NCBI GenBank assembly: GCA_976551045.1
Contig: CDPCPM010000571.1
Coordinates: forward strand, 1 to 64,000
Reading direction: 5' to 3'
Length of the DNA: 64,000 bases
Source of the DNA: Glaucostegus cemiculus
Taxonomy: Eukaryota
This document shows positions 1 to 64,000 of the stretch, one piece after another. Made by a program: the position numbers and the translations under genes. The notes under the pieces were generated by a model. That model saw nothing but the letters and a program-made list of their open reading frames with translations. It did no database searches and was not told where the DNA came from. Every line of letters begins with the position of its first letter. Within the stretch, counting starts at the first letter, position 1.

Positions 1-51
1 TCACAGCGTCGGCGGCCCGGGGGTTTTGTGGTGGGTTGGGAGGACAGCAGA

Positions 52-235
52 GGGGCGGGGCGTGCCGCAAGCCGATTTGAGCGACGGCGCCTGTGGGCCA
101 ATCAGAGCTAGGTTGGGCGTCAGAGGCGGGGGGAGGAGAGAGCGAGGGGCGGGGCTTGCTTTGAGCGACAGCGCCTGCGAGCCAATCAGAGGAGACGTTG
201 GCTTCGGTGGGCGCGAGTTGCGCGTTCCATTTAAA
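52..235 (+). promoter_or_regulatory. CpG-island core promoter of the AKR1B1-like gene (GC boxes, two CCAAT boxes, TATA-like element)
   Basis: GGGGCGGGG at 52-60 and 146-154; GCCAATCAGAG with CCAAT at 98-102 and 182-186; CATTTAAA at 228-235, about 50 nt before ATG 284; CpG-dense from 1 to about 900. Confidence 0.8.
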
Positions 236-30648: not shown

Positions 30649-30802
30649 TCTGTGTGTGAGTGTGTATGTAAACATGGCTTTGTGTGTGTGTGTGTGTGTA
30701 TGCAAACGTCTGTGTGTGAGTGTGTATGTAAACATGGCTTTGTGTGTGTGTGTGTGTGTGTGTGTGCAAACGTCTGTGTGTGAGTGTGTATGTAAACATG
30801 GC

Positions 30803-30836
<34 letters not shown>
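30649..30836. repeat. Compound minisatellite: three units of about 60-64 bp, each containing a (GT)n microsatellite
   Basis: Unit TCTGTGTGTGAGTGTGTATGTAAACATGGCTTT(GT)n...GCAAACG starts at 30649, 30709 and 30773. Confidence 0.9.
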
Positions 30837-33573: not shown

Positions 33574-33789
33574 ATCTCAGACATGGACCTGCCTGCATGG
33601 AGCAGGTTCCCTTGGTGTGGGTTGGATCACAGACATGGACCTGCCTGCATGGAGCAGGTTCCCTTGGTGTGGGTTGGATCTCAGACATGGACCTGCCTAC
33701 AGGGAGCAGGTTCCCTTGGTGTGGGTTGGATCTCAGACATGGACCTGTCTGCAGGGAGCAGGTTCCCTTGGTGTGGGTTGGATCTCAGA
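33574..33789. repeat. 52-bp minisatellite, 4 copies plus a partial
   Basis: Unit ATCTCAGACATGGACCTGCCTGCATGGAGCAGGTTCCCTTGGTGTGGGTTGG at 33574, 33626, 33678 and 33730, with 1-2 mismatches each. Confidence 0.95.
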
Positions 33790-34959
33790 GATGACCACGT
33801 CAATATGGAGGACATTCCTCAGAGCATTTTAACTCCAGAGATGCCTGTGTGTAAAATTTCTGCACTGAAGTAACAGCATTGATCCGTCTTATTTTCACTC
33901 TTCAAGTTTAAGCCCTCCACTCCAATTTAAAATTTACAGTTACCCTACTCTACAATGTTTGCTCCAACATTGGACTCCCCTGCAAATAGTGTTACTATCT
34001 GTTAATGAGTGCTGTCCGGCTGTTATTGTTCGATGCAAGAAAGACAACACACCTTACTCACATGTGTCTAGAAGTGAGATTTGAGCCTTGCTAAACCAGT
34101 GGTGCACAAAACACGTCTGGCACTAATACCCAATTGCAAAATAGGGTAAAAGTAGGTTACAGATAGGGCTATGCACATGTAATCATGTGCTAAAAAGCAG
34201 GGTTTGCATGGTTCCTATAAGGTGCTCATAACTGCCACAACATTGTCAATGTTGATCGCTGAAAAACAAATTAGACTTAAAGGAGCTCTCTTCATTGTAG
34301 CCAAAGAACAGCTGCTGAAAAGACTGTCAGAGAGATGGAAAAAATAGTGAAGGAGTCAAGATGATCTCCTGTGTACCCCCCACCCCCCATACTCCCAGTC
34401 AAGTCCTGTGCCACAAGTCCCCCTATGTCTCTGCAAGGTGTGAGGTAATCAACAAGGCATACCTGTAGCATACGGCTCTGTTCTAAATCATCCCTCCAGT
34501 TCTGTGGGGTCTGAGGTGGCTATTGAGGCCAGTGCGGGAACCACAGACTCTTCCGCTGATCGGGTAGCAGGTGCTGGTGGGTCAAGTACCTGGGTAGTGT
34601 GTGAGGTAGTGCACTCCTTCCACTGCTTACACGGGGTTTCTGTGTTCTCAATACCATCCAGAATGCTCGTTCTTCACTTGAGCAATTATGGCCCAGGGTT
34701 TGCAGGGAGCCAGTGAAGGACGTCACATTTCCTCATGGAGACTTTGAGCACATCCTTGAATCTTTTCCTCTATCTGCATGGTAACCAGTTTCCTTGACAA
34801 TTCCACGTAGGTTGCATGCAAGAACTGTGAGCCTTCCATCCTCCTGAGCATCCAACACCTGAAGCTGATACATGCTTTGTGCAAGGCATTGACGTTACAG
34901 TGCAGACCCTTTAACTGCCTCACTTAAATCCTACAGAACTGTAGAAATAAACTGGCATC

Positions 34960-35450: not shown

Positions 35451-38400
35451 AGTGTGTTAGGGAACTGGAGCTGCGGCTGGATGACCTTCGGCTCCTACGG
35501 GATACCGAGGAGTACATAGACAAGAGCTATAGGGAGGCAGTCACTCTGAGGCTGCAGGAGGCAGGTAGCTGGGTAACTGTCAGGAGGACAGGGAATAAGC
35601 AGGCAGTGCAGAGTACCCCTGTGGCCATTCCCCTCAATAACAGGTAGACTGCTTTGGATAGTGTTGGGGAGGGGGAATGACCTACCAGGGGAAAGCTGCA
35701 GTGACCAGATCTCTGGCACTGAGCCTGGTCATGTGGTGCAGAAGGGACGGGGGAGAAGTGGAATGCGGTAGTGATAGGGGATTCCATAGTAAGGGGGGCA
35801 GACAGGAGATTCTGTGGACGTGTAAGAGATTCCTGGATGGTATGTTGCCTCCCCGGTTCAACGGTCAGCAATGTCATCAACTACTAAACTGCTCCTGTGT
35901 CTGGATTGGGTCCACGGCATTCTGAAGGGGGAGAGCAAACAGCCAGAGGTCGTGGTACATATTGGTACCAATGACATGGGTAGGAAAAGAGATGAGGTCC
36001 TGAAGAGGGAATATAGGGAGTTAGGTAGGAAGCTGAAAAGCAGGACCTCAAGGGTAGTAATCTCCGGATTGCTGCCTGTGTCATGTGCCAGTGAGGGTAA
36101 GTATAGGATGATTTGGCAGGTGAATGCGTGGCTGAGAAATTGGTACAGGGGGCAGGGTTTCAGATTTGTTGATCATTGGGATCTCTTCTGGGGAAGGTAC
36201 GACCTGTACAAAAGGGACGGGTTACACCTGAACTGGAGGGGGGACCAATATTCTTGTGGGCAGGTTTGCTAGAACTGTTCAAGAGGGTTTAAACTAGTTT
36301 GGCAGGGGGATGGGAGCCAGAGTGATAGGTCAGAGGTTGGTGCATTTAGTGTACAAGTAGATGCAGAGTGTAGAAAGACTGAGGAAGGATAGGCAGTTGA
36401 AAGAGAAAAATTGCAGTCAGTTGGATGGGCTGAAGTGTGGCTACTTCAATGTGAGAAGTATCAGGAACAAGGCTGATGAACTTAGAGTGTGGGTAAGTAC
36501 GTGGAACTATGACGTGGTGGCCATTACAGGGACTTGGCTGTCACAAGGACAGAAATGGCTGCTGGATATTCCAGGATTTAGATGTTTCAAAAGGGACAGG
36601 GACAGAGGTAGAAGAGGTGGGGGAGTGGCTTTGCTGATCAGGGACTGTGTCACAGCTGTAGAAAGGGAGATGTCCTGGAGGAATCGTCCACTGAGTCAGT
36701 GTGGGTGGAAGTCAGAAACAGGAAGGGAGCGACCACTCAGTTGGGAGTATTCTACAGACACACCAGTAGCAGCAGAGACACTGAGGAGATCAGGAGGCAC
36801 ATTTTGGAGAGGTGCAAAAATAACAGGGTTGTTGTCATGGGTGATTTCAACTTCCCTAATATTGATTGGCACCTCCTTAGTGTAAAGGGGAGAGATGGGA
36901 TGGGGTTTGTTAGGTGTGTACAGGAAGGATTCCTGACACAGTATGTGGACAGGCCGACTAGCGGAGAGGCCAGACTGAACCTGGTACTGGGCAATGGGCC
37001 TGATCAGGTTTCAGATCTCTCGGTGGGAGAGCATTTTGGAGACAGTGACCATAACTCCTTGACCTTTACCACAACCTTGGAGAGGGATAGGAGCAGACAA
37101 TATGGGAAAGTATTTAACTATGGGAAGGGGAAAGTGAGTTCCTGCACTCAGGCAGGAACTTGGGCGTGTAAATTGGGAACAGATGTTCTTGGGGAAGTGC
37201 ACAGTGGAAATGTGGAGGTTGTTTAAGGAACACTTGCATGGGGCTCTGGATAAGTTTGTCCCATTGAGGCAGGGTAAGGATGGTAGAGTGAAGGAACCCT
37301 GGTTGAGAGGAGATGTAGAATATCTTGTCAAGAGGAAGATAGAAGCTTACCTGAGGTTTGGAAAGCATGGATCAGACAGGGCTCTGGAGTGTTACAAGGT
37401 AGCCAGGAGGGAGCTAAAGAATGGACTTAGGAGAGCTAGAAGGGGGCATGAGAGGTCCTTGGAAAGTAGGATCAAGGAAAACCCCAAGGTGTCCTACACA
37501 TGTGTAGGATAAGAGGATGACTAGAGTGAGGGTGGGACCGATCAGGGATAAAAGAGGAAATGTGTGCCTGGAGTCAGAAGAGGTAGGGGAGGTCCTTAAT
37601 AAATACTTTGCTTCAGTATTCACCAGAGATAGAGACATTGATGTTTGTGACGATGGTGTATGACAGACTGATATGCTAGGGCATGTCAACGTGAGGAAAG
37701 GGGATGTACTGGAACTTTTGAAAAACATTAGGATAGATAAGTCACTGGGGCCAGATGGGATATACCCAAGGTTATTATGGGAAGCGAGGGAAGAGATTGC
37801 TGAGCCTTTGGTGATGATCTTTGCATCCTCACCAGCCAAAGGAGTAGTGCCAGATGATTGAAGGGTGGCAAATGTTGTTCCTTTGTTTAAGAAAGGGAGT
37901 AGGGACAACCCTGGGAATTACAGACCAGTGAGTCTTACTTCAGTGTGGGTAAATTACTGGAGAAGATTCTTAGAGACAGGATTTATGGGCATTTAGAGAA
38001 GCGTAGGCTGATTAGGGACAGTCAGCATGGCTTTGTGAGGGGCAGGTTGTACCTCACAAGCCTGACTGAATTCTTTGAGGATGTGACAAAGAACATTGAT
38101 GAAGGTAGAGCAGTGGATGTGGTGTACATGGATTTTAGTAAGGCTTTTGATAAGGTTCTTCATGGAAGGCTTATTCAGAAAGTCAGGAGGCATGGAATGC
38201 AGGGAAACTTGGCTGTGTGGATTCAGAATTGGCTTGCCTATAGAAAACAGAGTGTGGTGGTAGATGGAGCATATTCTGCCTGGAGGTCAGTGGTCAGTGG
38301 TGTTCTGCAGAGGTCTATACTGGGACCCCTGCTCTTTGTGATTTTTATAAATGACTTGGATGAGGATGTGGAAGGGTGGGTTGGTAAGTTTGCTGATGAT

Positions 38401-41539: not shown

Positions 41540-43330
41540 CGACACTTAAGAAGGAAATTAAAAGGGCAAAAAAGCAGACGAGATATCCTTGCCAGATAAG
41601 ATAAAGGGGAATCCTAAAAGTTTTGACATGTATATTAGCAGCAAAAAGGTAAGTCATGACAGAGTAGGTTCCCTGAAGAATCAGTGTGATGCTCTATATG
41701 CAGAGTCACGGGAAATGGGTGAGGTCTTAAATGAATACTTCTTGTCTGCATTTACCATGGAGAAGCTCATGGAAGCTAGGGAGTTCAGGGACCAGTGATA
41801 TCGGGAAGCATGCTGATAAATCCCTGGGGCCTGACCAGGTGTATTCTAGGACATTGTGGGAAGCAAGGGAGAAGATGACTGGGGCCCTGGCAAAGATTTT
41901 TGCATACTCATTACCCACAGGTAAGGCACCAGAAGAATGTAGTACGGCTAATGTTGAGAAGGGCTGCAATGACAAGCCAGGGAACTATTGGCCAATGAAC
42001 CTTACATCAGTGGTGGAAACGCTACTGGCAGGGATTGTGAGGGACAGAATTTATTTGCATTTGGAGAGGCAAGAGCTGATTAGGGATAGTCATGGAAGTT
42101 CATGTCTCACAAATCTGAGAACTTTGAAGAAGTGACAAAGGGGATAGACTAGGGCAGGGCAGTGGATAGCGTCCACCAAGACTTTAGCAAGGTCGGCTGA
42201 TCCAGAAGGTCAGGTCACATGGAACCCAGGGTGAGATAGCAAATTGGATTCAAAATTGGCTTGGTGGTAGGAGGCAGACAGTAGTAGTGCAGGGATGCTT
42301 TTCAGACTGGAGGCCTGTGACCAGTGGTGTGCCGCAGGGATCAGCCCTGGGTCCACTGTTGTCCATCACATATACTAACAACTTGGAAGAGAATGTAGGT
42401 GGCATGATTAGTAAGTTTGCCGATGATGCCAACAACTGGTGGTATAGTGGACAGTGAAGAAGGTTGTCTATGGTTACAACAGGATCTAGATCAACTGGGA
42501 AAGTGGGCAAGGGAATTTAACTCAGACAAGCAGAAAGTGATGCATTTTGGGAAGTTAAACCAGGCCAGGGCATATACAGTGAATGGCAGGGCCCTGGGGA
42601 GTGTAATTCAACAGTGAGACCTTGGGGTACAAGTACATAGTTCCCTAAAAGTAACAACACAGGCAGACAAAGAAGGTGTATGGTATACTTGTCTACATCA
42701 GCCAAGATAATGATTATAGGCGTTGGAACGTCATGTTACAACTGTATGAATCATTGCTTAGGCAGCACTTGGGAATATTGCAGTTCTGTTCACTGTGCTA
42801 CAGGAAGAATGCAATTAAGCTAGAGAGGGCCCAGAAAAGATTCACAGGAATGTTGCCTGGACTGGAGGGCTTGAGTCATAAGGAGCGATTCGATTGGCTG
42901 GGACTGTTTCCTCTGGAGCGAAGGAGGCTGAGGAATGACCTCATAGAGATTTATAAAATTATGAGCGGCATAGAGAGGGTAGATTGTCATAGTCCCTTTC
43001 CCAGGGTAGGGAAGTCTAAAACTAGAGAGCGTAGGTTTAAGAAAAGAGGGGAGAAAGATTTTAAGGTGAGAAAGATTCAAAGGAGATCTAAGGGGCAAGT
43101 TTTTTTGACACAGAGAGTGATGGGTAAATGGAACAAGCTGCCAGAGTAGGTGGTGGAAGCAGGTACAATTACACTAGTTAAGAGGCATTTGGATAGGTAC
43201 GTGGATAGGAAAAGTTTGGAAGGATATGGGCCAAACACAGGCAAATGGGATTGGCATAGGTATTTTGGTCAGCATGAACAAGTTGGGCCGAAGGTTCTGT
43301 TTCTGTGCTGTATAACACCATGAATCTATG
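41540..43330 (+). mobile_element. 5'-truncated CR1 LINE, nested in an older minus-strand CR1 remnant
   Basis: DKSLGPDQVYSRTLWEA, PGNYWPMNLTSVV, KFADD and LERAQKRFTGMLPGL; tail gggccgaaggttctgtttctgtgctgtataacaccatgaatctatg. Confidence 0.88.
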
Positions 43331-43679
43331 TTAATAATCCACCTAGGCTACATCCCTTTTCAATCACCAAAATTATCCTCCTAGAGTTGAGTATATTTAA
43401 TGAGAATGTTTTGAATCCTGCTCCCCAAATGCTCTCCTGGTGAAACTTCAATTGATTCACTTCAGTCCCCATAACCAGATCCAGCAGAGGTTCCTGCCTC
43501 CACACTCTGTCACAAGCAGAGAGTCATGCAGCCTGGGAACAGGCTTTCAGCCTAACGTCCCCACATCGACCATCAAGCATGAATCACTGCTTAGCTCCGG
43601 CATATTCATCAATTCTTCACTCCAACCCAACCAAATTCAACTGTCACCTATCCTACATGGCAATTTTACAGTTGTCAGT

Positions 43680-51400: not shown

Positions 51401-53243
51401 GGATGAAGTGATAGAATCGATAATCTAGTGTGAACCTGGGGATGTGCAGGGTGACAGTGCTAGTGCGTACGCTGGGTGGGAGTGGCACACTATGAGCCCA
51501 GTCTGGCTCTGAATCCTTGCCCGCCACAGCATAGACCTTCCAGGAAATGGTCACTGATTGAATTCTATCACAGCGTAAGCCAGCATTTCCATAAACATTT
51601 AGGGCAGCGCCCTTCATGGTCTGGATAATGGTGCCGGGAGGAGGTGGAGACTGTATGGTGGGTGAGGGCAACTGGCAGTGTGCCAGGGAGCAGAACAGAA
51701 CCGAGTCTGAGGGGGCTGTGCTGTAACTACCAACCCTCGCCTGCATACTGATCAGCTTATCCCCAGGTGCTGAGCAATTCACCTTGGCCAAGAAGCCCCA
51801 GTATTGCTTGGGGTCAAAGGACAGCTTGGTGTCCGGGATATAGCGCTGCGCGTCCGTAACCACCCGGTCATAACCGTGCCAGCTGACCTCGGCACCCACG
51901 GTCAGTCTGAAGTCCCAGGCACACTGCAGGGCAGGGTGCTGGCGGGGGAGGAACCAGACCACGTTAGCCAAGTCACCCACAGTAGTGGAACCACTGTTAA
52001 ACAGGGAGAGGCTGACGTTCAGATCCCTCAGGGAACTGTAGATGGCCCCTGTTAGGTTCAGGTAGAGCTGCACGGTGAGGGTGTACTGCCCGGGGCTGCT
52101 GTAGTCTATCAGGAAGAGGTGGCTGATCTCGGCAGCCCCGATGAAGAAGAAGTGCCTGCGGCTGCCAGGAGGCCCGTCCGCCCGGGAGTAGTACAGCCGA
52201 CTGCTGGGGCTGATGTAGTAGAAGGCGGTGCCGGGGGTTCCGGGGTCAGGCTGCAGCCAGATGCGAGCGCCGCCCTGCACCAGGCTCAGGGCCCCGTCCT
52301 GCAGGGTGACGGTGACGGTCCCGAGGCCGGCGGTGCCGCCGCCGCCCGCCAGCAAGAGGAGCCGCGCCAGGCAGTGGCCGTGGCCGGGCCAGGCGCAGGG
52401 GCAGAGGCGGGCGGCCACGGCTTTCGGGTGGTAGGTCAGGCTCCAGGCGGCGGGGTGGGGCGGCCGGGCGGCCAGCTGGTAGGAGAGGACGCCGGCCTCG
52501 GCCGACAGGCGCCAGGACACGGCGAGGGTGCGGCCCCGGGGCAGGGCGGCGGCCCGGGCGCTCAGCAGGTGCATCAGCGCCGGCCGCACCTGCAGGGAGA
52601 GGTGGAGGGGGGAAGCGGGGGCGCCCAGCGTCTCCAGGCCGCAGGAGTAGTTGCCGGGCCGCGGGTAGCGCACCCGGACCCGGTACAGGTAGCGGCCGGC
52701 GCACTCGGCGCCGCCGGGCCCGGGCTCCGGGCTGTCACCGGGCAGGCTGGCGGAGCTGGGCGAGGCCCCGGCGCAGCTCAGGCGGTAGCTCCAGAAGGCG
52801 CTGCGCAGGTTGGCGCACCAGGCCAGCGGCACGGCCTGGCCGGGCAGCGGGGCGGCCGGCGGCCCGAACAGCAGCAGCCGCAGCGGGGCGGCGTGGAGCT
52901 GCAGCGGCCGGTAGCTGCAGGCGGGGCAGGAGGCCGAGGTGTAGCGCAGCAGCACGGGCGTGTCCAGCGGCACCCGGACCAGGCTCTGGCGGCCCGACCA
53001 GCGGCGGGAGGAGGCGGCCAGGCGCTGTCCGATGAACCAGCGGAGGGTGGGCGCGGCGCCGCTGGTGTCGGTGCCCGGGCTCGGCTCGAAGGCCACGTCC
53101 AGCGAGGGCTGCCACAGGCAGGTGTAGCGCTCGGCCGTGTCCAGCATGTGGCTCACCCCGAAGGGGCAGCGCAGCACGACGGGCGGGAGGAGCGGGGCGG
53201 CGCGCCCCGCCGCGGCCCACAGCAGCAGCCCGACCGTTAGCAT
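45492..53243 (-). CDS. pkdrej: PKDREJ-like polycystin (receptor for egg jelly-related), single exon, 2583 aa
   Basis: Uninterrupted 7.75-kb ORF. The first ATG at 53243 (gcgATG) gives a signal peptide MLTVGLLLWAAAGRAAP. REJ module (LNASLSNDPD...FSWYC, NSPPMDGRCVITP), GPS-like region (SWDFSSCTAGP...HCIC), TM1, PLAT/LH2 domain (YLVTFYTGGRPDAGTTA...WHNNVGLSPSWYL), SRIQRLSCC, polycystin LGLPRMRQIR motif and a C-terminal 6-TM channel. A single coding exon is characteristic of PKDREJ among PKD1-family genes. Confidence 0.92.
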   Translation of the reverse strand: MLTVGLLLWAAAGRAAPLLPPVVLRCPFGVSHMLDTAERYTCLWQPSLDVAFEPSPGTDTSGAAPTLRWFIGQRLAASSRRWSGRQSLVRVPLDTPVLLRYTSASCPACSYRPLQLHAAPLRLLLFGPPAAPLPGQAVPLAWCANLRSAFWSYRLSCAGASPSSASLPGDSPEPGPGGAECAGRYLYRVRVRYPRPGNYSCGLETLGAPASPLHLSLQVRPALMHLLSARAAALPRGRTLAVSWRLSAEAGVLSYQLAARPPHPAAWSLTYHPKAVAARLCPCAWPGHGHCLARLLLLAGGGGTAGLGTVTVTLQDGALSLVQGGARIWLQPDPGTPGTAFYYISPSSRLYYSRADGPPGSRRHFFFIGAAEISHLFLIDYSSPGQYTLTVQLYLNLTGAIYSSLRDLNVSLSLFNSGSTTVGDLANVVWFLPRQHPALQCAWDFRLTVGAEVSWHGYDRVVTDAQRYIPDTKLSFDPKQYWGFLAKVNCSAPGDKLISMQARVGSYSTAPSDSVLFCSLAHCQLPSPTIQSPPPPGTIIQTMKGAALNVYGNAGLRCDRIQSVTISWKVYAVAGKDSEPDWAHSVPLPPSVRTSTVTLHIPRFTLDYRFYHFILNVTVSTTDPDLPHINNSAQATVEVTESALVALITGGSYRMVGLEDTLTLNASLSNDPDSPHPHLGLNFSWYCTTKFSDYSTMTLSVNQYCHAGNPELKWSSSVPQTLVILPHMLALNKNFYFRVVVQKNTRTSYFDQTITVLPSFVPKMLITCIENCQRFLLPTDRFILAGVCSNCPDSSRMTYQWKLLLRDSGSEVKFDWSLESLTGNSMSYVSLNPLSFVHLIDEWYTFELNATTSTGSQSLNRYDFYINSPPMDGRCVITPKYGWALHTKFTLTCLKFQDKDRPFRYKVIAKTYYPTGYIDSLKNNLLGTIVYFGYRPKSTPFYLPVGSILGQHILIIAVQIFDSQGVYARLYLKVRVYDLPFDPDKGSKVDQLFGFVEGKKAALTTLLHETDYLKASQLLYGVASMLNYNTFKDKAKVIKLRETLVNVSASIPVTSPNLIYQISASIYAAAQKEDEFSQHAQRLAAANLLELSLVLLNYTNEAVILSESAEQLSCSILTAASNVLAAFSFQFPAQGSVTGIPLTKNQQQVVADIFPTLRTLTEAVSHSKVPGQKDTTMTTRQWEITVKKVEKRNIEDSYLSDLDCADCIYPVMTGTVMSDTQPVSSVLYRFEKNPLPWLGNAADIATDVTAFHMSTLDSNGNVYNVEAKQIEILLVRKDVVSAQRIKLTKDPKQIGVIRGQFRIDLNSTSAQEVFLQLTADLSAVFTVSIYSGKASADQLPAQKHTIPQCASGPALRKGIHVPDPYVISILTGLFQKNVTDPKRSRFITIAVEAKSPKPREVIKMGLLVSIFTVSCLSFQGKADSWDFSSCTAGPLTNSKKVHCICTDVYSNKTKRDLSLKFPWFLAASILVLPNVIDLYEIGELIVTLPKNLVTLITVLVIFFIYFVLVCWAWRKRKRDKKEIIILPDNDPCDAACYLVTFYTGGRPDAGTTADIFLTLVGTSAESDAYLLHHPEHQTFCRKSVDTFLLTAKVDLGELTHIRVWHNNVGLSPSWYLSRVKVQNVFTRQQWHFFCRTWLATTKGVSVLLGTFPVTSVGILLRRRDVFFIEVSSRMDKEHLWFSVFALDVDQSFSRIQRLSCCLAMLLCSLLTGIMLFQFEEQEEFWLKVRTSLVIAVESALVMVPVELLISGLFLYAQRKGESLSVKEDQEVDGNSIENFNLKSNLRERLKHWYSMDKPVSEVEESPNKVVDMPKDDHYSHLSFIAGEENIHKPSAKEKNNCIIPQSAADQITKEEEVGGLIGRKKKATTKVKPMAWPRQIRPARQKRWKGRFRQSSKSKHPRKKPSVLLSRCLLYLAWCIIWLVSIVSAVFIVLYGLSYGLQTSWLWLVTSVFSFLQSIFILQPLKIMAFAALFALSRRRAQDMDWSTGIQVLEVSANDLPKNDSDCLQLEPRVRKQYRPLEGDELILAKKKGIIKSRAFELCMRMLLHLVFLGLLLYSVCFTDYSNGYYYNRIIQQEFSKNLDRVNTVREFYTWLKITFLPLIHDDSNLSFLNGTNTVILGLPRMRQIRSKQGSVDCFLKPNAVSTVLGKLRCRPLFNNNQEDTKNYNGSWNLAIESISVTGPLDYTGWLYEANDSPWFYNTHGVYRDYSLGGYSIYFSSSNLQNSIVRLLTLQNSNWIDGSTWVVVIETTMYNANVDLLCSISLILETAPLGVVSKKLSVKSFSLRLFKRREVNWIFISILFMLFFLVFAIQECRTMRRKGYTYLQKLESIANLIIAVLLLMAIVLHLAKFLLAHSMLKLYKKNPTSFVAFHVISALDQLLRINVAFLLFVTIVKLLRYTRFLYHVRLVQKAISVGFPAICSLALLMAMCSLIFMSVGHLLFGQFDKNFNTMIHAAQTVVSYYTGEFNNTDFPYSRVIGGIYLVTFLFIMNCILINLFDSVVILSYGDMRQFVHEKPAEEAEVAIFIMQECRRVWYALLRKTPPEGDNEVLTTLFYGRGFKRAYGLKRKKLNGKKQNYLFI

Positions 53244-53460
53244 CGCCCGGGGACCCGCCGCCCGTTGCAGTTTGAAGAGCCCGCCAAATCCGGCCCGGCC
53301 TGACGTCACGCCCCGCCCCGGAGCGCGCGCCCCGCGACGTCACGCCCCACCCCGGAGCGCGCGCCCCGCGACGTCACGCCCCACCCCGGAGCGCGCGCCC
53401 CGCGACGTCACGCCCCTCCCCGGAGCGCGCGCCCCGCGACGTCACGCTCACCACGCGTGA
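52100..53460. promoter_or_regulatory. CpG island covering the PKDREJ promoter and the 5' part of the CDS
   Basis: Sharp shift to very GC- and CpG-rich sequence compared with the AT-richer rest of the ORF and the flanks. Confidence 0.85.
53301..53447. repeat. 34-bp tandem repeat (4 full units plus a partial one) in the PKDREJ proximal promoter; each unit has a CRE-like site and a GC/GT box
   Basis: Unit GACGTCACGCCCC(G/A/T)CCCCGGAGCGCGCGCCCCGC starts at 53302, 53336, 53370, 53404 and 53438 (partial). Perfect TGACGTCA at 53301-53308. Confidence 0.92.
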
Positions 53461-53924
53461 GGACAAGGCTGCAGATTCCCTTCACCTAATGTGTCCTTCG
53501 CCGTCGATGGGTCTAAATCCCGGGTCTCCCTCCCCAGCAGCACGACGGGAGAACCTTTAGTCGAGGGACCACCGTGGGTTCAAGTGGCAGTTGCCGACGT
53601 GGATGAGTGGCAGAGTGGATGAACGAATGTGGTGGAGGAATCTGGCATGTTGTCTGAGGTGCCACTAGGCTGCTCGACTGCCCTGTGGGACAGCTCCCCA
53701 GCTTCAACACCAGTTCTCAGGTCTGCAATGTTGCAAACTTTCCGGAATCCAGTTCTCCAAGTTGCAGAAAAGTATGCAAGTGGTCTTTCCCCCTGTAGTA
53801 AGTCCCATGTAATTCTATCTAATTGCTTTAATTTAACTACAATAGTGATGTTCACTGTCACTATTATCCTTCCCCTTCTAATGCACGTTGCCACTCAAGC
53901 AAGTGGCTCCTGTTGGATAAGATA

Positions 53925-54580
53925 ACATAGAACACTACAGCACAGTACTGGCCCTTTGGCCCATGATGTTGTGCCAACATTTTATCCTGCTCTAAGATCT
54001 ATCTAACCCTTCCCTCCCACATAGCCCTCCATTTCTCTATCATTCATGTGTCGATCTAAGAGTCTCTTAAATGTCCCTAATGTATTTCCCCCCACAATCT
54101 CTGCCAGCAGTGCGTTCCACACACCCATCACTCTCTGTGTAAAGAACTTACCCTGACATACCCCTTATACCTTCCTCCAATCACCTTAAAATGATGTCCC
54201 CTCATGTTAGCCATTGTTGCCCTGGGAAAAAGTCTCTGACTGTCCACTTGATCTATGCCTCTTATCATCTTCTACACCTCTGTCGTCACCTCTCATCCTC
54301 CTTCTCTCCGAAGAGAAAAGCCTGAGCTCACTCAACCTATCCTCATCCAGGGAACATCCTCGTAAATCTCCTCTGCACCCTCTCTAAAGCTTCCACATCC
54401 TATAATGAGGTGACCAGAAATGGACACAATACTCCAAGTGTGGTCTAACTAGAGTTCTGTAGAGCTGCAACATCACCTCATGGCTCTTGAACTCAGTACC
54501 CTGACTAATGAAGCCCAACACTCCATATGCCTTCTTAACAACCCTATTGACCTGCGTGGCGACCTTGAAGGATCCATGGA
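53925..54580 (-). mobile_element. CR1 3' fragment
   Basis: Starts aacatagaacactacagcacagtactggccctttggccc (reverse-complement tail); similar to 38600-39297. Confidence 0.88.
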
Positions 54581-54600
54581 CTTGGATCTATGGACTAATA

Positions 54601-54885
54601 TATGACTATCTTTAATAGTCACATGTACATTGAAGTACACAGTGAAATGCATCTTTTGTGTTGCGTGTTCTTGGGGACAGCCCGCAAGTGTCACCACACT
54701 TCCGGCACCAACAACTTCCTAACCCGTATGTCTTTGAAATGTGGGAGGAAACTGGAGCACCCAGAGGAAACCCACGCAGGCACACGGGAGAACGTACAAA
54801 CTCCTTACAGACAGTGGCAGGAATTGAACCTGGGTTGCTGGCACTGTAAAGCGTTACACTAACCACTAAACTACCGTGCCTGCCC
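54601..54885 (-). mobile_element. V-core tRNA-SINE with Rex-like tail
   Basis: Reverse complement gggcaggcacggtagtttagtggttag...ggttcaattcc followed by the V core; tail gcatttcactgtgtacttcaatgtacatgtgactattaaa. Confidence 0.88.
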
Positions 54886-55229
54886 AATAAGTTACCAGAA
54901 CATTCATATGAACTACAAAATGATTTTCTTTGCTGACAATGAAAGGAAAGTTCGGTGTCTCAGTGAGGTGGAACATTCATTACTCACTAACCTGTGCCAG
55001 CTATGAGCCTTGTTGCCCAGATGGGAGCTTCACAGGATATAAAGACATACTCTACAATGTAACGTACAAAGGCCAGTGTTATGATTGCAGCCCCTCCTGG
55101 CCTGCTCAACAGTAGGGAAACTGAGGGTTAATAAGAATCTATGTTTCACTAAGTGAGCTGCCTGCTGTGCAGTTGAGTACCAGACACCAATCTTCCCCAG
55201 TTCTTCACGGCATATGAAACCTTCCCCAT

Positions 55230-55480
55230 GAAGCCATCTTCAGAAAGGTCCAAAGTGCTTCCCAACCAATTAAACACTTTTGTAATGAAATGTCAGATCA
55301 TCTGTTGGTTGAGGGATAAAGGAAACCCTCCTACTCTTTGTTGGAAATTACGTTGTCTTTTATGACTTCTTGACAGGGTGGAGTTAGTTATCACCTCGTT
55401 ATTGATTACACATTCCCTCAGTACTGGAATAGCAGGTGGTGGGATTTAAACCCATAACATTTGGACTCAGAGGTGTGACT
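55230..55480 (-). mobile_element. Degenerate Deu-domain SINE (SacSINE1/AmnSINE-like)
   Basis: tgttggttgagggataaa...ctcctactctt, cattccctcagtactg and gtgggatttaaacccataacatttggactcagagg resemble the reverse complement of the Deu core and tRNA head as recalled. Confidence 0.55.
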
Positions 55481-58400
55481 GATCATGCATGCATCCATGG
55501 CCAGTTTAACCAGCAGTATCTCAGCAGAGCATAAAACTGTGCAATCAAGGATCCCGTCAGAGTTATAGAGGCCAGTCCAGAATGGCCCTGTGGAAATTAC
55601 CAGCATACATCAGTGAGGAAGGGTCAAGGCCTGTGGTGAATGACCCCAACACTGAATTAAGTTACAAAGAGTATAGTCGTAAAGAATTTGGGTTTTAGGA
55701 ATCTGTCTCCCTCATTTAGCCCCTCAGAGTCATAAATGTCTTGCTTGCACTCCAATTCTGTGCTTTCTGAGATGGCTGCTGAGTCCAATGCAGGTCTCAC
55801 AGACTATTCCTTAAATGGGGCAGGGAGTGCTTTGAAGGATGGGTGGGTGTCCAGTATAGAAGGTCTGCTTTTTAGAAACCAGTGGGTTTGAGAGGCACAA
55901 CTGAGGAAATGAAGTATCCCCACTTTCACAGAAATACCCCGTAACAGAGGAAAATGAAGTTGATAGCGAAATGAAACTTACTTATCTTACAAGTGAGAGA
56001 ATTTGCTTTGGTTTGTAGCCACAATTCTGAAATAATGACAGATTGTTTGGGAGCTCTGCAGCTACTGTTTGAGTCCCTGTTCATGTTAGTGTGGGATAAT
56101 TTTTGTTTTATGTAATGTTTTAGAAACTCCAGCCTGGCACCTATAGCCAACACGATGCTGATGCACAGACTGGGGAGAGAGAGGGATAAACCTGAAGATG
56201 GATAAATCCCTGACTAAATCACACAGCCAACAACCAGGAGAGAGGAGCGGTTGATCTACCAAAGGTAGAGACTTTGGATATATGGAACAGACTACTCAGG
56301 GAGGGATATGTAAAGAGACCTCTGACCTCATTAAGTAATCACTCTTGCAGGGGTCAGTGAAACCTCATTGTTCCAGGGAATCCTTTCATGTGTCTCTGTG
56401 AAAGCAGCAAGCGTAACAAATTATAAAATGCTTGTGTTTCTGGGTTTTATATAGTGGCTTTATTTTACATTTAATTTTTCTTCACTACAAATCTCAACTG
56501 CGCTTCCAGTGAAAGAGGAATCGATTCAGGCTCTCAGTGGGTGGGTCCAGTCGTTTAGAGTAGCTCTCATTTTAGTGAGTGGTGTGAGATTTTTCAGGAG
56601 ATGGTTGTGTTGTTTGACATTTATTTAAAAACTTCACTGTGTGCACAATGATCTCGGGAAGTGCTTCACCTCCACTCCAGGCTCTCAAAATACATGATGG
56701 AGATTGTGCAGAGTTTTGAGTTAACTGGGAAGAATTGTGCTGTGGCAATGAAGCTGGAGCAAGCCCAGCTGACCGTACATGTACCTTGACAGGGTGGAAG
56801 CACGTGATGTTTATTCCACTTGGTCAGACTGGCTCTGGAGATGGGAATAAATTTTGGATGGTCCCTGTGTTGTAACCTCCTGAGTGTGGTCAGTTGTGAG
56901 AAAGTACTTTCTTCAAGAGGTAAAAACAGAAGTTAAGAGGCTGTTTGAACTAAACCTGCTGCACTAAGGTTGTCCCTCGAGGTACTGGATGAATTGCTTC
57001 CATTCCAGTTCTGAGAAGAGGAAGTTGCCTGGGTGTGTAATTTTTGAGTGGCCTGACTGTTACACACTAGCCAGCCCGTGGACGAGAAGGTGAGGCCTCA
57101 GTCCAGTAGTCGGGAGGATCGAGACAACTGGAGACAAATCTCTTTAGCACAGACGTACCACCTAATTTCCCCCACACTCCTTTCCTTAGCCCCTTCCGCT
57201 GCACTTCCCCACTCTGATCCCCTCTGTCCTCGTGTCTGCCTCCTCAATCTCCCCTCTCCAGTGCTTCTCTTCCTCATTTTCCTTCCTGCACTGCCCCGTT
57301 GGTTCCTGCTTCCCAGCTCCTGCTCCTTCTCCAGCTGCTGGCCTCCTGTTCTGTCCAGGAGCAAAGCCATTAACCAACTGCTGCTGCCTTCCCTCTCCAG
57401 GACCATTCACCCCCTCCACTGTCACCCCCTCCAGTCCCAACAGTCATTTGCCTGCAGCCCAGCTCAGACCTCCTTGTAGTAAATCTTGGAATAATCTATA
57501 GCTACCCACCTAGAGATGTCTGTGGTTGGGAGATTGCCATCTCCTGGTGCTCTGTGTCCAGATTTCTGGGTCACTGTACATGATTTCCTGGCTGACAGAG
57601 GCAGATTCATCCTATAGGGACAGGCCACTGAATTGTATGACCGGTGTAGACTTACAGAAGGCTGGAGTCTCGTGAAATTATGGTGGAAGTAATTATCAGA
57701 GTGGACTTGTGTTTGGAATTGCAGCTAACCTTAGAGGAAATAATGAGATATGTCATTTAAAAGAAAGACTAGTGTTTCAACACAAAGCAATTGAATGCAG
57801 GATGTACACTGAAGGAAATCTGCAAGACTGACAGGAAAAACCTGCAAGCTAGGGATAAAGAAAATCCAGGGACCTGAGAGTATTGCAACAAGTTCCACAA
57901 GAAAGAACTGTGTCCAGCTTCTGGCAAAATATATCACATATGGAATGAACAAGGAAATGCCTTGTAAAAGAATCATTTGTGTAAACTGACCTTCAGAACA
58001 ACTGATGTGGAAGCAGGAAGAACACTTTTTGTTGTCAGTGAGGTGGGAACTTTTGCTTTGGATGATAAGGAGAATGTTATACTCAAAAGTATGGTAACTA
58101 CCTGAAACTTCAAATAAATACAGAGCCCAATTTAATGAAATTCTGTTTCATGTATGCATGAATACAGCTAAAAAAATTCAACGTGCAAAGGTGGAACCAT
58201 GTAAGTCCGATTAAAGTTTATGGTGGAGCTAGTCTTTCTAACAGCACAGTGACTCTAAACGTAAGCTGACCTGTGGATAGCATGACTGTAGGATATCTCT
58301 GGGCATAAAAGCATGTTTGAGCATGGACATTATCAACTATAATCATAAGGATGCACTCAATAGTTGTCTCCCTGAGCTTTACTTAGGTTCTTTATCTTAA

Positions 58401-58884
58401 GTTAAATAAACAAAGATATCCCTTTGTAACAAATCTCAGTTCCGCTTAAAGAGGAATCAATACAGGAAAAACCATGGTAAAAGTGATTGAGAAACTCCTC
58501 AAGCTGAGGAACTGCAGTGATCATGGGCATCCACAATTTCTACAGAAACATTGAAGAAGTTTTTATGTTCACTATTGAACCGTCCTTCTGGACTCAAGCA
58601 AAGCGCCCTCCAGCAAATCAATACTCATTCCCGGAGAGTAAATGAAAATCAAAAATCTGCAGATGCAGGACATCTGGCCAAAGGGCTGTATTGTTCTATT
58701 GTTCTAATCTGGAATCAAAACAGACGTTGCCGTAACCACTCAGCAGGTCAGCCAGCATTTATAGAGAGAGAATCAGAGTTAATATTTCAGGTTGAAAACC
58801 TGCTCGAGGAAAGTTTATTGATCCGAACCAGTGACTCTGTTTCTCCCTCTACAGATGCTGCCTGATCAGCTGCGTGTTTCTGTC

Positions 58885-59565
58885 ATAATGAATAGCCTGT
58901 CCTGGTCCAACCACGATGCCATGGCCAAGAAAGTGCACCAGCACCTCTACCTCTTCAGGGGGCTAAAGAAATTTGGCATGTCCCTGTTGACCCTCACCAA
59001 TATTTATAGATACACCACAGAAACCATCCTATCCGGATGTATCATGGTTGGGTATGACAACTGTCCTGGCTGAGACCACAAGAAGCTGCAGAGAGTTGTG
59101 GACACAGCTCAGCACATCACGGAAACCAGCCTCCCCTCCATGGGCTCCAGGTCTACACTTCTGGCTGCCCTGGTAAAGCAGCCAACATCATCAAAGACCC
59201 CTCTCACCACAGACATCCTCTCTTCTCCGTCCTCCCATCGTGCAGAATATTCAAAAGCCTGGAACTATGTACCACCAGGCTCAAGGACAGCTTCTATCAT
59301 GCTAGGGGAATGGTCGCCTAGTATGATAAGATGGACTCTTGACCTCACAATCTACCTCATTGCAGTCTTGAACCTTATTGTCTGCCTGTTCTGCACTTCC
59401 TCTGTATCTCTGTAACACTTTATTCTGCATTCAGTTATTGCTGTTCCCTTGAATTACATTAATGTACTGATGTGATGAAATGATCTGTCTGGATGGCATG
59501 CAGAACAAAGTTTTTCACCATATCTCAGTACATGTGACAATAATAAACTGATTTGCCAATTTATT
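58885..59565 (+). mobile_element. Rex1/Babar-like LINE 3' part inserted into a Penelope hairpin arm
   Basis: LSWSNH..AMAKKVHQHLYLFRGLKKFGMS...TETILSGCIMVGYDNC; tail ttttcaccatatctcagtacatgtgacaataataaac. Confidence 0.8.
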
Positions 59566-59639
59566 TCTAGTGTTTTCTGTTTTAATTCATTCCTCAAGTT
59601 TAGAAATGTGATTTAAATTTAAGATTTTTAAAAAATTTT

Positions 59640-59863
59640 ATTTACAGCATGGTAACAGGCCCTTTCGGCCCTCCGAGTCCACGTCGCCCATTTTAAACCC
59701 CCAAATTAACCTACCCGTACGTCGAGGAAACCGGAGCACCCGGAGGAAACCCACGCAGACACGGGAGAACATACAAACTCCTTACAGTCAGCAACGGGAA
59801 TCGAACCCCGATCGCTGGTGCTGTAACAGCGTCGCGCTAACCGCTACGCTATCGTGCCGCCCA
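59640..59863 (-). mobile_element. Young V-core tRNA-SINE with CR1-like tail
   Basis: CpGs intact; reverse complement gggcggcacgatagcgtagcggttagc...ggttcgattcc followed by the V core; tail gggccgaaagggcctgttaccatgctgtaaat. Confidence 0.9.
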
Positions 59864-59889
59864 CTTAGTGCAGATTTAGTGCAGAAAGC

Positions 59890-59965
59890 AGTCCTGGATA
59901 AAATGTCGGCACAACATTGTGGGCCGAAGGGCCTGTACTGTGCTGTAGTGTTCTATGTTCTATGG
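59890..59965 (+). mobile_element. Very short CR1 3' tail insertion
   Basis: cggcacaacattgtgggccgaagggcctgtactgtgctgtagtgttctatgttctatg. Confidence 0.8.
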
Positions 59966-60617
59966 ATGAGTCCACATTTCCATACTTCTGCAACTATGTC
60001 CGTACTCTGGGTGACTCTGGACACAACTGTAATGTCTGTAGGTGTGCTTGAGATCTTCAACAACCATTGGCATCAAAGGGATCAGTATGCAATATAAGAG
60101 CACAAGAAAAATTCTGATTGAGCCTCATGTACAATGTGTTTCCCCTGACTGGGTTGGCTAGAACTAGGGACCACAGTTTCAAAATGAAGGGTTATCTGCT
60201 GAAAGTGGAGAGGACAGAGCAGGCTCAATGAGCCTCATATTTCTGACTGATCAAATGTGATGTCAACCACTGGTTCTGTGTTGCAATAAAGGAGCTAGAA
60301 AGGTGGCAAAATGTACTCTGCCTTCCATCAGTTTGCTACCTCATTCTAATGCTTCAGCTGGCCTCATGGCCAAGTGATGGTATTCGGGTGGAGTCATCCA
60401 AGGATTCACTTTCTGAATTGTGGAATTGAATTAAAAAACAAACCAAAAAAGTTTGTAAGATTTTTTAAAAGTTACATGTTGTCCAAAGGACAGCAATGCA
60501 GTGCAAAACATGAAGCCTAGATCTGTTTTTGTACATCTGTGTTGATGCCTGTATGAGGTTTCTTGAGATTGTGAATTTCCGATCCAGATACATATCAGAT
60601 ACATATCAGATACATAT

Positions 60618-60920
60618 GGGGCAGGCATGGTGGTGTAGTGGTTAGCATAATGCTATTACAGCGCCAGCGACCCGGGTTCAATTCTGGCCGCTGTCTGTAA
60701 GGAGTTTGTATGTTCTCCCCGTGTGTCTGTGTGGTTTTCCTCCAGGGTGCTCCGGTTTCCTCCCACATTCCAAAGACGTACGGGTTAGGAAGTTGTGGGC
60801 ATGCTACGTTGGCGCCAGAAGTGTGGCGACACTTGTGGGCTGCCCCCAGAACACTATGCAGAAGATACATTTCTCTGTGTGTTTCAACGTACGTGTGATG
60901 AATAAAGATATCTTATCTAT
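60618..60920 (+). mobile_element. Full-length V-core tRNA-SINE with Rex-like tail
   Basis: A box TGGTGTAGTGG, B box GGTTCAATTC, V core gtctgtaaggagtttgtatgttctccccgtg...ctccggtttcctcccacattccaaagac; tail catttctctgtgtgtttcaacgtacgtgtgatgaataaag. Confidence 0.9.
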
Positions 60921-61539
60921 CTTATCAAGCTTCAGCAAACTCTGTAGGAACAGAAAGATGCTTTCCTTTCATCTGTGTTCTGCATCTTGACCAGAATGCG
61001 TAATTTACCCTTTTCACATCCACGCAGTAATGCCAACTTCTGTCCCTCTGTTTTATCCGCCAGGTCTTAGAACATCAGGCCTTTTAATGCAGGGAAATAG
61101 CCCATAATATGGTCAGAGAACGGTTGACACTGACGGACTAAGTGATGTGTAAAAGTTAGAACCGGAGAAACAGGAGTGCTAGTGGTGGAGGAGGTTACAG
61201 AGACGGGGAGGCGAGAAGTCATGGAAGAACTTAAAATATTAGGATGAGAATTTTAAATCTAAGGCATCAGACAGTTTACATCAAGTAAGGAAAGTTAAGA
61301 ATTTATGAGCCTTTCCTAAAACTGGAAGTGAAGAAACATTTTGATATTAAGGTCCAGCTGAATTAGCACAGAAGGGAATGTGTATTGGATAGTTCTGAAG
61401 ATCATTTGTTGCTTCATCTTGTCACGTATGTATGAAGGCTAGACTGAGGTTGGATTTCTGATCCCATGTTTTCTCCCATTACACAGACCTCCAGTTGTGA
61501 AAAGCACAACAAATTGTAGGATGCTGGGAGGTGGAGTGA

Positions 61540-61985
61540 AACAGAGGGATCTTGGGACTGGACAGCTAGAAGTCCCTGAAGCCAGCAGAGCAGCTAGATC
61601 AGGTGGTTAAGGAGGTTTATGGGATACTTAGCTTTATCAGCTCAGACATAAAGAGCAGGTAGACCACACCAGAGCTGTACGAAACACTAGGAAGCTGTAA
61701 CTGAAGCACTATATGCAGTTCAGGTGTCCACACTACAGCAAAGATGTGTCAGCGATAGAGAGGATACAGAGGAGACTCACAACGATGTTGTCAAGGTTGA
61801 ACAATTCTAGTTACGTGATTAGTGAGTCTGGGCTTGTCTTCCTTTGGAACAAAGGAGATGCTTAGATAGATTGAAAGGAAGAACTTCTTTCCCTTTGCAG
61901 AAAAGTCAGCAACTAGGGGATAGATTTAATGAGTCACTAAATTGAATGGGAGTTGAGGAAATTTTTCCAGCAGGATGGTGAAATG
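61540..61985 (+). mobile_element. Degenerate CR1 3' fragment
   Basis: gatcaggtggttaaggaggtttatgggatacttagctttatc, equivalent to the [11 protein letters not shown] region. Confidence 0.6.
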
Positions 61986-62745
61986 TTGTCTGAGCCATCT
62001 CTGCTTCCTCCCGAGATCCCCATCATCACAGAAACCTGTCTCTAACCAATTCCAGTCACTTCACGTGATATCAAGAAACAGCTGAGAACATAGGATACAG
62101 TGAATGTTTTGGGCTACTTCTGCCTGACTGTGGTTGTGAATGCTTCAGCCTTGTCTCCAGCACTCACCTGTAAGCCCTGCCATCAATGAGGATGGAGATG
62201 TTCTTGGAATCTCCTCTTCCCATTAGCTGTTTAATGGTCAACCACCATTCATTACTAGATGTGCTGGAACTGCAGAGCTTTGATATGAGCCATTGTGAGA
62301 TTGCTTAGCTCGGTCTGTTACACACTGTTTGGCATGTGTGTGGTCCTATACTGTAGCTTCAGGCACCTCATCATTTATAGCTTGCCTGGTGCTGCTCCCA
62401 GCATGTCCTGCACTGAACCAGTCTGACAGCAATGGCATAGTGAGGTATATGTGGGCCTTAGGTGTTACAGATTGTGGCAGAGGACATTTCTGCTGTTATA
62501 ATGGTCCACAGCAACTCACGGATGCCCGAACAGGTCTGAATCTATCCCATTTAGCACGACTGAAGTGCCACACCACATGATAAAGAGTGTCTGCAGTGTG
62601 AAGGTGGGAATTTGTTTCCATAAGAACAGCACAGAGATCACCTGCCATTGCTCTCACCAACAGATGTATCTGACAAGTAAGTTTATACCTTGTGCTGGTT
62701 CATTTACTACAAGCCACAGACCACATCTGGCAGCTATGACCTTTA

Positions 62746-63970
62746 CACCCATTGTTTCAGCCTGTCCTTGCCCCACCAACCTTACTTCTTCCCACCTTGA
62801 CTCCATCCTTTCCCCCTGGTCTGGCCCGTTCCCACTCACATCTGCAAGACCTCTGATACCCTCCACCACGTTGACCATTTTCAATTCTTTGGTCCCACCA
62901 GTTCACCTTTCCCATGTTTGTACAATCGCTGTGCACCTCCAACCCACGCCAGGTGGGTATGAGGGCCCTCAAACAGAGGTCCAGCAGTTCCCCTCCACCG
63001 ACACACACTTCCAACTCGGTGAACTCATCCTCACATCGAAGAACTTTTTCAACTTCACTCACTCTCTCCAAGTCAGAGGTCTAACAATGGGCACTCACAT
63101 CTTTCTGTGGGATACATGAAACACCCTTTGTTTCAGTCCTATTTATGCTCCCTCCCTCCACTCTTTTTCCAGTACATCAACCACTGCCTTGGCACTACTT
63201 CCTGCAACCATTCTGAACAGAAATGTGATTACTTTTGCTGCCAATTTCTACTCTGTTCTCACCTTTGCATGGTCCATGTCTAATTCTTCCCTTTCTGCAT
63301 CTCTCTGTCTCCATGTCAGGGCCTAGGCTATCCACAAACATCCATTACAAGCTCACAGACTCCCACAGATATCTCGACTATACTTCCTCGCACTCTGCCT
63401 CCAGTAAGAACTCCATTCTCCCAGTTCCTCCACATCTGTAATATTTGTGCTGATGAGACATTCTGCAGAGGTGCCTCTGAAATGTTTTCCCTCCTCCTGA
63501 ACCATGGTTTCCACTTAACCATAGTGAACAGGGCCCTTGATTGCATCTATTTCCGATACCTCTGCTCTCACTCCCTGTCCCCTGGATAGAGCAAAAACAG
63601 AGTTCCCCAACTGTAGAACCATAGAAAACTGCAGCACAGAAAACAGGCCATTCAGCCCTTCTAATCTGTGCCTAAATGTTATTCCGCTAGTCCCATTTAC
63701 CTGCACCCAGCCCATAACCCTTCAGATCTCTCCCATCCATGTATCTATCCAATTTACTCCTAAAAGAGTACCTTCCACTCCACCAGCCTCCATATTCAAC
63801 AAGTCATCCTTTGCGATATCCACCAGTTCCAGTAAGATTCTAACCACAGGCAAATCTTCCCATTCCCTTTCAACATTTCTCAGGAGCCATACCTTTCACG
63901 ACTCCCTGGTCTGTTCTTCCAATCTCACCAGCCATTCCCCGTCCTATGGTACTTGCCCATGATGCAACGC
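62746..63970 (+). mobile_element. Penelope-like element RT region (dead), interrupted by a minus-strand CR1 tail at about 63614-63745
   Basis: PIVSACPCPT...LDSILSP, LILTSKNF...LQVRGLTMGT and STNIHYKLTDSHRYLDYTSSH; the catalytic YIDD has decayed to YINH. Confidence 0.8.
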
Positions 63971-64000
63971 CGGTCCTCCCTTCAGAGTGGCGGTCACTCC

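Follow-up and report, generated by a model that had tools for sequence, protein, structure and literature searches.

The start codon of PKDREJ in the ray Glaucostegus cemiculus is preceded, in the 64,000-nt stretch of DNA analysed here (the window), by a tandem array of 34-bp units, and a candidate CDE/CHR element lies between the array and the ATG. Together these features suggest a CpG-island proximal promoter with a core of the Plk4 type, lacking TATA and CCAAT boxes and carrying a lineage-specific minisatellite, an interpretation to which we give about an even chance of being correct. Read from 5' to 3' on the gene strand, the promoter consists of a one-mismatch CRE, a GC-rich palindrome and an Sp/KLF box, repeated four times, then a perfect CRE, 14 nt, the CDE, 4 nt, an inverse CHR, 27 nt and the ATG (Table 1).

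Table 1. Features of the PKDREJ promoter, gene and surroundings, in window coordinates
Feature	Position	Strand	Remarks
PKDREJ, one uninterrupted ORF, 2583 aa	45492..53243	-	REJ, PLAT, polycystin and PKD channel domains
CpG island over PKDREJ 5' end and array	52200..53600		CpG o/e 1.15-1.25 at array
MYB-like CAACGG	53267-53262	-	weak alone
Inr-like TCAAACT	53275-53269	-	overlaps CHR; weak alone
CDE TGGCGG (53286-53281), 4-nt spacer GCTC, inverse CHR TTCAAA (53276-53271)	53271..53286	-	candidate DREAM/MuvB site
Perfect palindromic CRE TGACGTCA	53301..53308		-65 to -58 from ATG; proximal array edge
Minisatellite, 34 bp, 4 full units and 10-bp fifth copy	53302..53447		85% GC, 35 CpG
Four GGGG-N-GGGG Sp/KLF-type boxes	53311..53421	-	C, T, T, A, proximal to distal
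G-quadruplex-forming pattern	53311..53435	-	sense strand, 12 G-runs; G4Hunter mean 1.18
Four one-mismatch CREs TGACGTCG	starts 53342, 53376, 53410, 53444 (within 53335..53444)	-	gene strand
Interspersed repeat, several window copies	53924..54586		69-83% identity; bounds unique upstream DNA
AKR1B-like aldo-keto reductase gene	283 to ~15818 or 24691	+	tail to tail with PKDREJ

Analysis with Tandem Repeats Finder (period 34, 4.3 copies, 98% matches, 0 indels, score 278) confirmed the array of about 4.3 units that a sequence-only reading of this DNA had described upstream of the PKDREJ ATG. The array spans 58-204 nt before the ATG, 146 bp in all, and is real, its repetition being far beyond chance. 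As that reading had also stated, the full units differ solely at the centre of a CCCC-N-CCCC box: position 14 on the plus strand, the single variable column among the four, reads G, A, A and T, and the CRE cores and eight other CpGs per unit are invariant across the array. Three bases at this column with 33 columns fixed is a pattern mildly suggestive of tolerance at a degenerate Sp/KLF position; a second change would fall at one column by chance about 1 time in 34 (a post hoc value), and the variation could also stem from CpG decay or from base-calling between C runs. The mean pairwise difference between full units is 2.5%, so the proposed recently amplified module was upheld in the form that the units were recently amplified or homogenised; homogenisation can yield such divergence without a recent origin. 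No further copy of the 34-bp unit was found elsewhere in the 64-kb window, and its origin from a transposon was ruled out on that ground. Near-perfect minisatellites are common here: the 64 kb contain three arrays with a period of at least 30 and 95% or more matches; the two others are intergenic (33574-33793, 52 bp x4.2; 30649-30830, 64 bp x2.9).

The five CRE-like cores that had been claimed, one of them perfect, were recovered as five matches to GACGTCAC in the array (53302, 53336, 53370, 53404 and 53438; one further window match at 34719) and a single TGACGTCA, which is separated from the ATG by 57 nt. Because the five cores reflect one amplification event, their number provides no independent evidence of selection. 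A single perfect CRE is also unremarkable, being present in 32/100 whole-window shuffles. Successive CREs are 34 bp apart and out of helical phase, each step turning the site by ~86 degrees around the helix. A single CpG transition separates each TGACGTCG from the perfect TGACGTCA, and ordinary CpG decay there would therefore upgrade the site of its unit. The earlier claim of an Sp/KLF box in every full unit held for the GGGG-N-GGGG pattern (4/4) but not for the canonical GGGCGG GC box, which is confined to the proximal box (1/4), the others being of the GT, GT and GA types; a perfect CRE and a canonical GC box thus occur together in the proximal unit only. On the sense strand of the array the best 25-nt G4Hunter window scored 1.88, and the array DNA folds with a z score of -3.3, its units pairing with each other. 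A palindromic CACGCGTG, presumably a non-canonical E-box pair, is located at 53453-53460, 5 nt past the distal end of the array.

A rather unlikely explanation is that the array is a neutral, slippage-born minisatellite at a promoter already saturated by its perfect CRE, GC box and CDE/CHR. The two near-perfect minisatellites in non-genic DNA of the window are in keeping with this, as is the internal duplication of the neighbouring AKR1B-like promoter. Some site would be expected in any segment taken from a proximal promoter: among 2055 circular 34-mers from the CpG islands of the window, 133 carried a half-CRE, 187 a GGGG-N-GGGG box and 9 both, whereas none of the 34-mers from array-free islands (0/2055) held a 7/8 CRE. 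The confinement of variation to the Sp/KLF centre, which accepts three bases while the CRE cores and eight CpGs per unit stay fixed, also speaks against neutrality, and TRIB3 units have been shown able to add up, according to the available text of PMC7425993. Neutrality would, however, agree with CREM occupying >6700 loci and regulating only ~1% of the promoters it binds, and with the fertility of mouse Pkdrej knockouts outside competition, as given in the accessible part of 10.1101/608315.

A CDE followed by an inverse CHR, overlooked in the earlier reading, is located at -43 to -28 from the ATG, between the latter and the perfect CRE. The combination of CDE, 4 nt and inverse CHR has its sole match in the 64 kb at this position, against 0.02 expected, and was found in 2/100 shuffles; its frequency in local shuffles was 0.00045-0.0012, the lower value having been obtained when the upstream 300 nt, in which the array had been collapsed, were shuffled 20,000 times. 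As the element had been noticed visually ahead of any test, and the scan upstream of PKDREJ covered 17 motif classes, a ~20-fold correction was applied, giving a corrected value of ~0.01-0.02. The hexamer TTCAAA is a validated CHR, functional in inverse orientation in Plk4 and Ube2c in the portion of PMC4176359 available, and it conforms to the TTYRAA recognised by LIN54 (PMC4974476, available part). The CDE lies exactly four nucleotides upstream, the fixed CDE-CHR spacing, and TGGCGG is a listed common CDE (Table 1 of PMC5716687, as far as accessible). For human PKDREJ, the row in the available part of Table S3 of PMC4176359 holds no DREAM, MMB, FOXM1 or CHR entry in somatic-cell data, the CHR scan of that study having covered 200 bp upstream of the TSS only, and no array was reported for mammals in the papers found.

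From its letters, the element points to meiotic or cell-cycle-type control over a purely haploid programme. A-MYB, which regulates meiosis, binds MuvB (PMC11229319), and MTL5 has been proposed as a replacement for LIN54 in pachytene spermatocytes (PMC8386835); the two are, by the available text of both papers, a known route for MuvB into meiotic transcription. Pkdrej was found in none of the gene lists in the supplements of the MTL5 paper (PMC8386835). It is conceivable, at slightly less than an even chance, that DREAM, bound to the CDE/CHR, keeps the gene repressed in resting somatic cells and that MYB-MuvB (A-MYB and MTL5/tesmin in spermatocytes) activates it in meiotic prophase, and basal drive would come from CREB/ATF1/CREM together with Sp/KLF factors, as at Plk4. 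The CDE/CHR is the more useful lead, as a meiotic onset of PKDREJ through MuvB and either A-MYB or MTL5 can be put to the test.

CHRs sit on or very close to the TSS in the accessible portion of PMC4176359, from which it is argued that the array lies upstream of the TSS, and transcription likely starts at or near the CHR. The opposite arrangement, in which the TSS is further upstream and the array forms a 5' UTR that delays translation to spermatids through a hairpin or G-quadruplex, appears quite improbable. It would fit the lack of any further ATG for 404 nt upstream of the PKDREJ start codon and a CpG island extending to ~53600, and the transcripts of TRIB3 begin on both sides of its VNTR (PMC7425993, text available in part); CRE and GC boxes, however, usually lie upstream of the TSS, CREB peaks being found near -150 (PMC3091680), and the Inr-like 7-mer here overlaps the CHR, a class of site that clusters at the TSS. 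The array RNA does fold strongly (-139 kcal/mol, z -3.3) and contains the 12 sense-strand G-runs, but this fold is explained by the tandem repetition of palindromic units. A structured RNA family was considered and rejected, with 2 chance matches below the gathering score in 52800-54600.

The placement of the array at the PKDREJ 5' end proved correct, in that it sits inside a CpG island, at its upstream edge, just before a conserved start codon; CpG o/e is 0.28 for the whole 64-kb window vs 1.15-1.25 at the array. The interspersed repeat starts ~680 nt upstream of PKDREJ, and NRF1, CCAAT, TATA, E2F6, canonical E-box and GCNF patterns are absent in the 700 nt upstream. A head-to-head gene sharing the promoter was rejected, as none of the 91/91 plus-strand frames of at least 36 aa in 53450-64000 carried a Pfam gene, a scan by which short exons could be missed; 6/92 minus-strand frames were also scanned against Pfam, and the sole match of the upstream scan was a sub-threshold ALKBH8_N (E 6e-4).

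The human TRIB3 promoter VNTR is a close parallel, with 33-34-bp units in up to five near-identical copies in either case, a bZIP (ATF-family) site per unit and an overlap, probable in the ray, with the proximal promoter. The array has the length of a near-perfect minisatellite of this type and its unit carries a transcription-factor consensus, here a consensus match only. The TRIB3 unit differs in holding a C/EBP-ATF4 site, while the ray unit holds a CRE-like site and an Sp/KLF box. In the available text of PMC7425993, polymorphism, a single-copy state in other mammals and a dose effect are proven for TRIB3, for which going from 1 to 5 units of 33 bp, each with an ATF site, gives ~5-fold more activity. 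The core downstream of the array resembles that of Plk4-type promoters, with a CRE, a CDE and TTCAAA four nucleotides apart and no CCAAT box (PMC3874167, PMC4176359, both available in part). Plk4 is CRE/NRF1-driven, CDE/CHR-repressed and without CCAAT boxes, its activity coming from the CRE and its timing from the CDE/CHR, in the accessible part of PMC3874167; the ray promoter, in contrast, has no NRF1 site, its CRE segment is multiplied and its gene encodes a sperm polycystin and is not a cell-cycle gene. The orthologous mouse promoter has a half-CRE and no full or one-mismatch CRE under its CREM peak (PMC3091680). By analogy, the array may work like the TRIB3 33-bp VNTR on a Plk4-type core and is a candidate member of either class.

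Nothing relevant to CRE-bearing promoter VNTRs was found among the literature matches listed, and no paper on the PKDREJ promoter was found among those listed, by title or abstract start. Promoter repeats holding factor sites include the CSTB dodecamer, the INS VNTR and the tandem 18-bp CREs of CGA, and CRE repeats are present in viruses, with units of 21 bp in HTLV-1 and 19 bp in CMV. In each of them a short unit repeated in tandem close to a start site increases the number of CRE or G-rich boxes, but their units and genes differ from those of the PKDREJ array and the likeness is a resemblance only.

The 10-bp fifth copy can be read as microhomology, which argues that two CRE-like 10-mers preceded the array and seeded slippage, plain duplication leaving whole copies plus ~1 base of chance match. 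The ancestral promoter would have contained these 10-mers 34 bp apart, and slippage or unequal exchange between them would have multiplied the 34-bp segment. G-runs and pairing between units favour repeat instability, and the sense-strand G-runs and inter-unit palindromes of the array would favour slippage. The general behaviour of near-perfect GC-rich minisatellites suggests that unit number probably varies between individuals. On balance we lean slightly towards the extra units acting as lower-affinity activator sites that would raise the amplitude of expression, not its tissue specificity. Human genes already offer well-known promoter VNTRs that multiply factor sites; such a VNTR in a ray, at a gene under sperm competition, would give a cheap length marker, scored by one PCR, and would test whether repeat number tunes the expression of a fertilisation receptor in an internally fertilising fish. 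If neutral, the array is an ordinary minisatellite.

It had further been proposed that CREM-tau drives the array, as a module for haploid spermatid expression shut in soma by CpG methylation. A CRE is indeed present in the proximal promoter as a consensus match, as in CREM-tau target genes, the array holds five CRE or one-mismatch sites, and most CREM peaks carry one-mismatch or half sites (PMC3091680). In mouse round spermatids a CREM peak lies 25 bp from the Pkdrej TSS, at -25 (PMC3091680, Table S1), the promoter bears H3K4me3 (PMC3091680), and no CREB peak is found there in GC1-spg cells; the CREM peak is, however, near the cut-off (45 reads, cut-off 40, row 5854 of 6793) and covers a half-CRE only (PMC3091680, Tables S1 and S3). 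Pkdrej is also missing from the list of 127 genes affected in CREM knockouts, although the old array used may lack a probe. Sorted zygotene/pachytene spermatocytes of mice at P16-17 contain Pkdrej mRNA, which is down 21-fold in Hsf5 knockouts arresting at zygotene/pachytene (PMC11059408, in the text available), whereas CREM-tau protein appears in round spermatids; the mRNA of meiotic prophase thus precedes the protein, and neither post-meiotic onset nor CREM dependence was seen for the mouse orthologue. Silencing by methylation is known for many germline CpG-island genes, 137 of them in the accessible part of PMC7305168, but Pkdrej was not among the 19,733 rows examined of its Dnmt3a/b double-knockout embryo table, rows that, by six probed ones, run from up-regulated genes down to ~log2FC -0.22. 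All of this evidence comes from mouse and none from rays. CREM may add to PKDREJ activity, as the weak mouse peak would allow, but a CREM-tau switch that acts in haploid cells under methylation control is improbable and is not the best reading.

The identity of the gene, as judged from domains and tree, is PKDREJ, and the name given to it earlier stands. REJ, PLAT and polycystin channel domains are all present in the ORF, and the coding sequence is a single 7752-nt frame without interruption, an intronless state also characteristic of mammalian PKDREJ. Its closest relative is Pristis pectinata XP_051886628.1 (91% identical), and among the batoids it pairs with Pristis as its sister, in a PKDREJ clade that tracks the species tree and is apart from PKD1L2 (43 rows, C-terminal 1150 aa; SH-aLRT 100 for the PKDREJ grouping, without bootstrap). 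The ATG at 53243 on the minus strand is taken as genuine because most shark and ray models begin at the same Met, with a signal-like stretch after it. An N-terminal coding extension was rejected, every frame being closed by the TGA of a CRE without an upstream ATG, and none of 8000 candidates (0/8000) was a short N-terminal fragment of a PKDREJ relative. Past the stop codon, the first AATAAA/ATTAAA is at 43401 on the minus strand, ~2.1 kb downstream, which implies a long 3' UTR or use of a variant signal. The restriction of PKDREJ to testis and sperm holds for mammals in the available parts of PMC5318412 and PMC13218627, but for the present gene it is borrowed, the host being a ray. No testis expression data on elasmobranch pkdrej were found in the literature search; catshark pkdrej is without bias to sensory organs in the accessible text of PMC11979771.

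The first ~240 residues of the Pristis model XP_051886628.1 match another reading frame of 53154-52549, and this RefSeq model therefore probably carries a frameshift in its GC-rich 5' end. That errors in GC-rich DNA produced the unit number or the G/A/A/T column of the ray array is extremely unlikely: the out-of-frame model does concern the same GC-rich 5' region, and the variable base lies between two C4 runs, but the array is short (146 bp), free of indels and of N, and cleanly flanked by unique sequence, and the adjacent 7.7-kb ORF is intact.

Conservation was assessed through in-frame 5' extensions of predicted shark proteins (Pristiophorus, 51 aa; Chiloscyllium punctatum, 63 aa), which report upstream DNA if unspliced; the comparison is one of back-translated predicted peptides, not of DNA. 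Both extensions can encode TTCAAACT, as can 196/2000 shuffles for Pristiophorus and 31/2000 for Chiloscyllium. In a gapped profile alignment to the 66 nt from CRE to ATG, 8/300 and 6/300 shuffles, respectively, were as good (6-26/300 under three parameter sets), and against two control stretches the extensions were no better than shuffles (43-207/300). Neither extension matched the array or unit (175/300 and 262/300 shuffles as good), an ungapped back-translation test of the Pristiophorus extension was negative (828/1000), and a longest-exact-stretch test was not significant (59/150 and 14/150). The Chiloscyllium extension can encode 14 nt identical to the CDE plus spacer, a length reached by 14/150 shuffles; its CDE-like and CHR-like stretches (codons -38 and -32) are not 4 nt apart, and no half-CRE is possible upstream of the latter. 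TTCAAA alone is encodable by 719/2000 and 525/2000 shuffles of the two extensions, and the perfect CRE by neither extension. Turtle, sheep, goat and cattle extensions showed no match to the proximal DNA (22-58/200 shuffles). These peptides weakly support an ancient CHR-like core in cartilaginous fishes and lend no support to an ancient CRE array.

In three sheep PKDREJ-like models the conserved Met is closely preceded by three copies of a 16-aa (48-nt) unit, of which four goat models and one cattle model each have a single copy. The sheep repeat (~48 bp x3) ends ~60 nt before the ATG of one PKDREJ paralogue, which suggests, from predicted peptides alone, a second and independent amplification at the PKDREJ 5' end. 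A very doubtful extension of these observations would combine an old MuvB (CDE/CHR) gate, retained in cartilaginous fishes and turning on this sperm-competition gene in meiosis, with repeated 5' amplification (34 bp x4.3 in the ray, ~48 bp x3 in sheep) serving as a dosage knob; if true, the amount of receptor on sperm would depend on unit number, a polymorphic trait open to selection.

Nesting of PKDREJ within the aldo-keto reductase gene was rejected, as the exons of the latter end by ~15818, or possibly 24691, from which it follows that the two genes lie tail to tail. In Mobula hypostoma the relatives of the AKR1B-like gene and PKDREJ are probably on one chromosome. The AKR1B-like promoter (38-191, plus strand) itself has a duplicated module, a GC box and a 32-bp block ending in CCAAT, in two copies 84-94 bp apart with cores 91-94% alike. 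LINE remnants with reverse transcriptase or endonuclease domains were noted at 20590-21099, 36361-36885 and 42188-42454, and ruminants seem, from consecutive locus tags, to carry several tandem PKDREJ paralogues.
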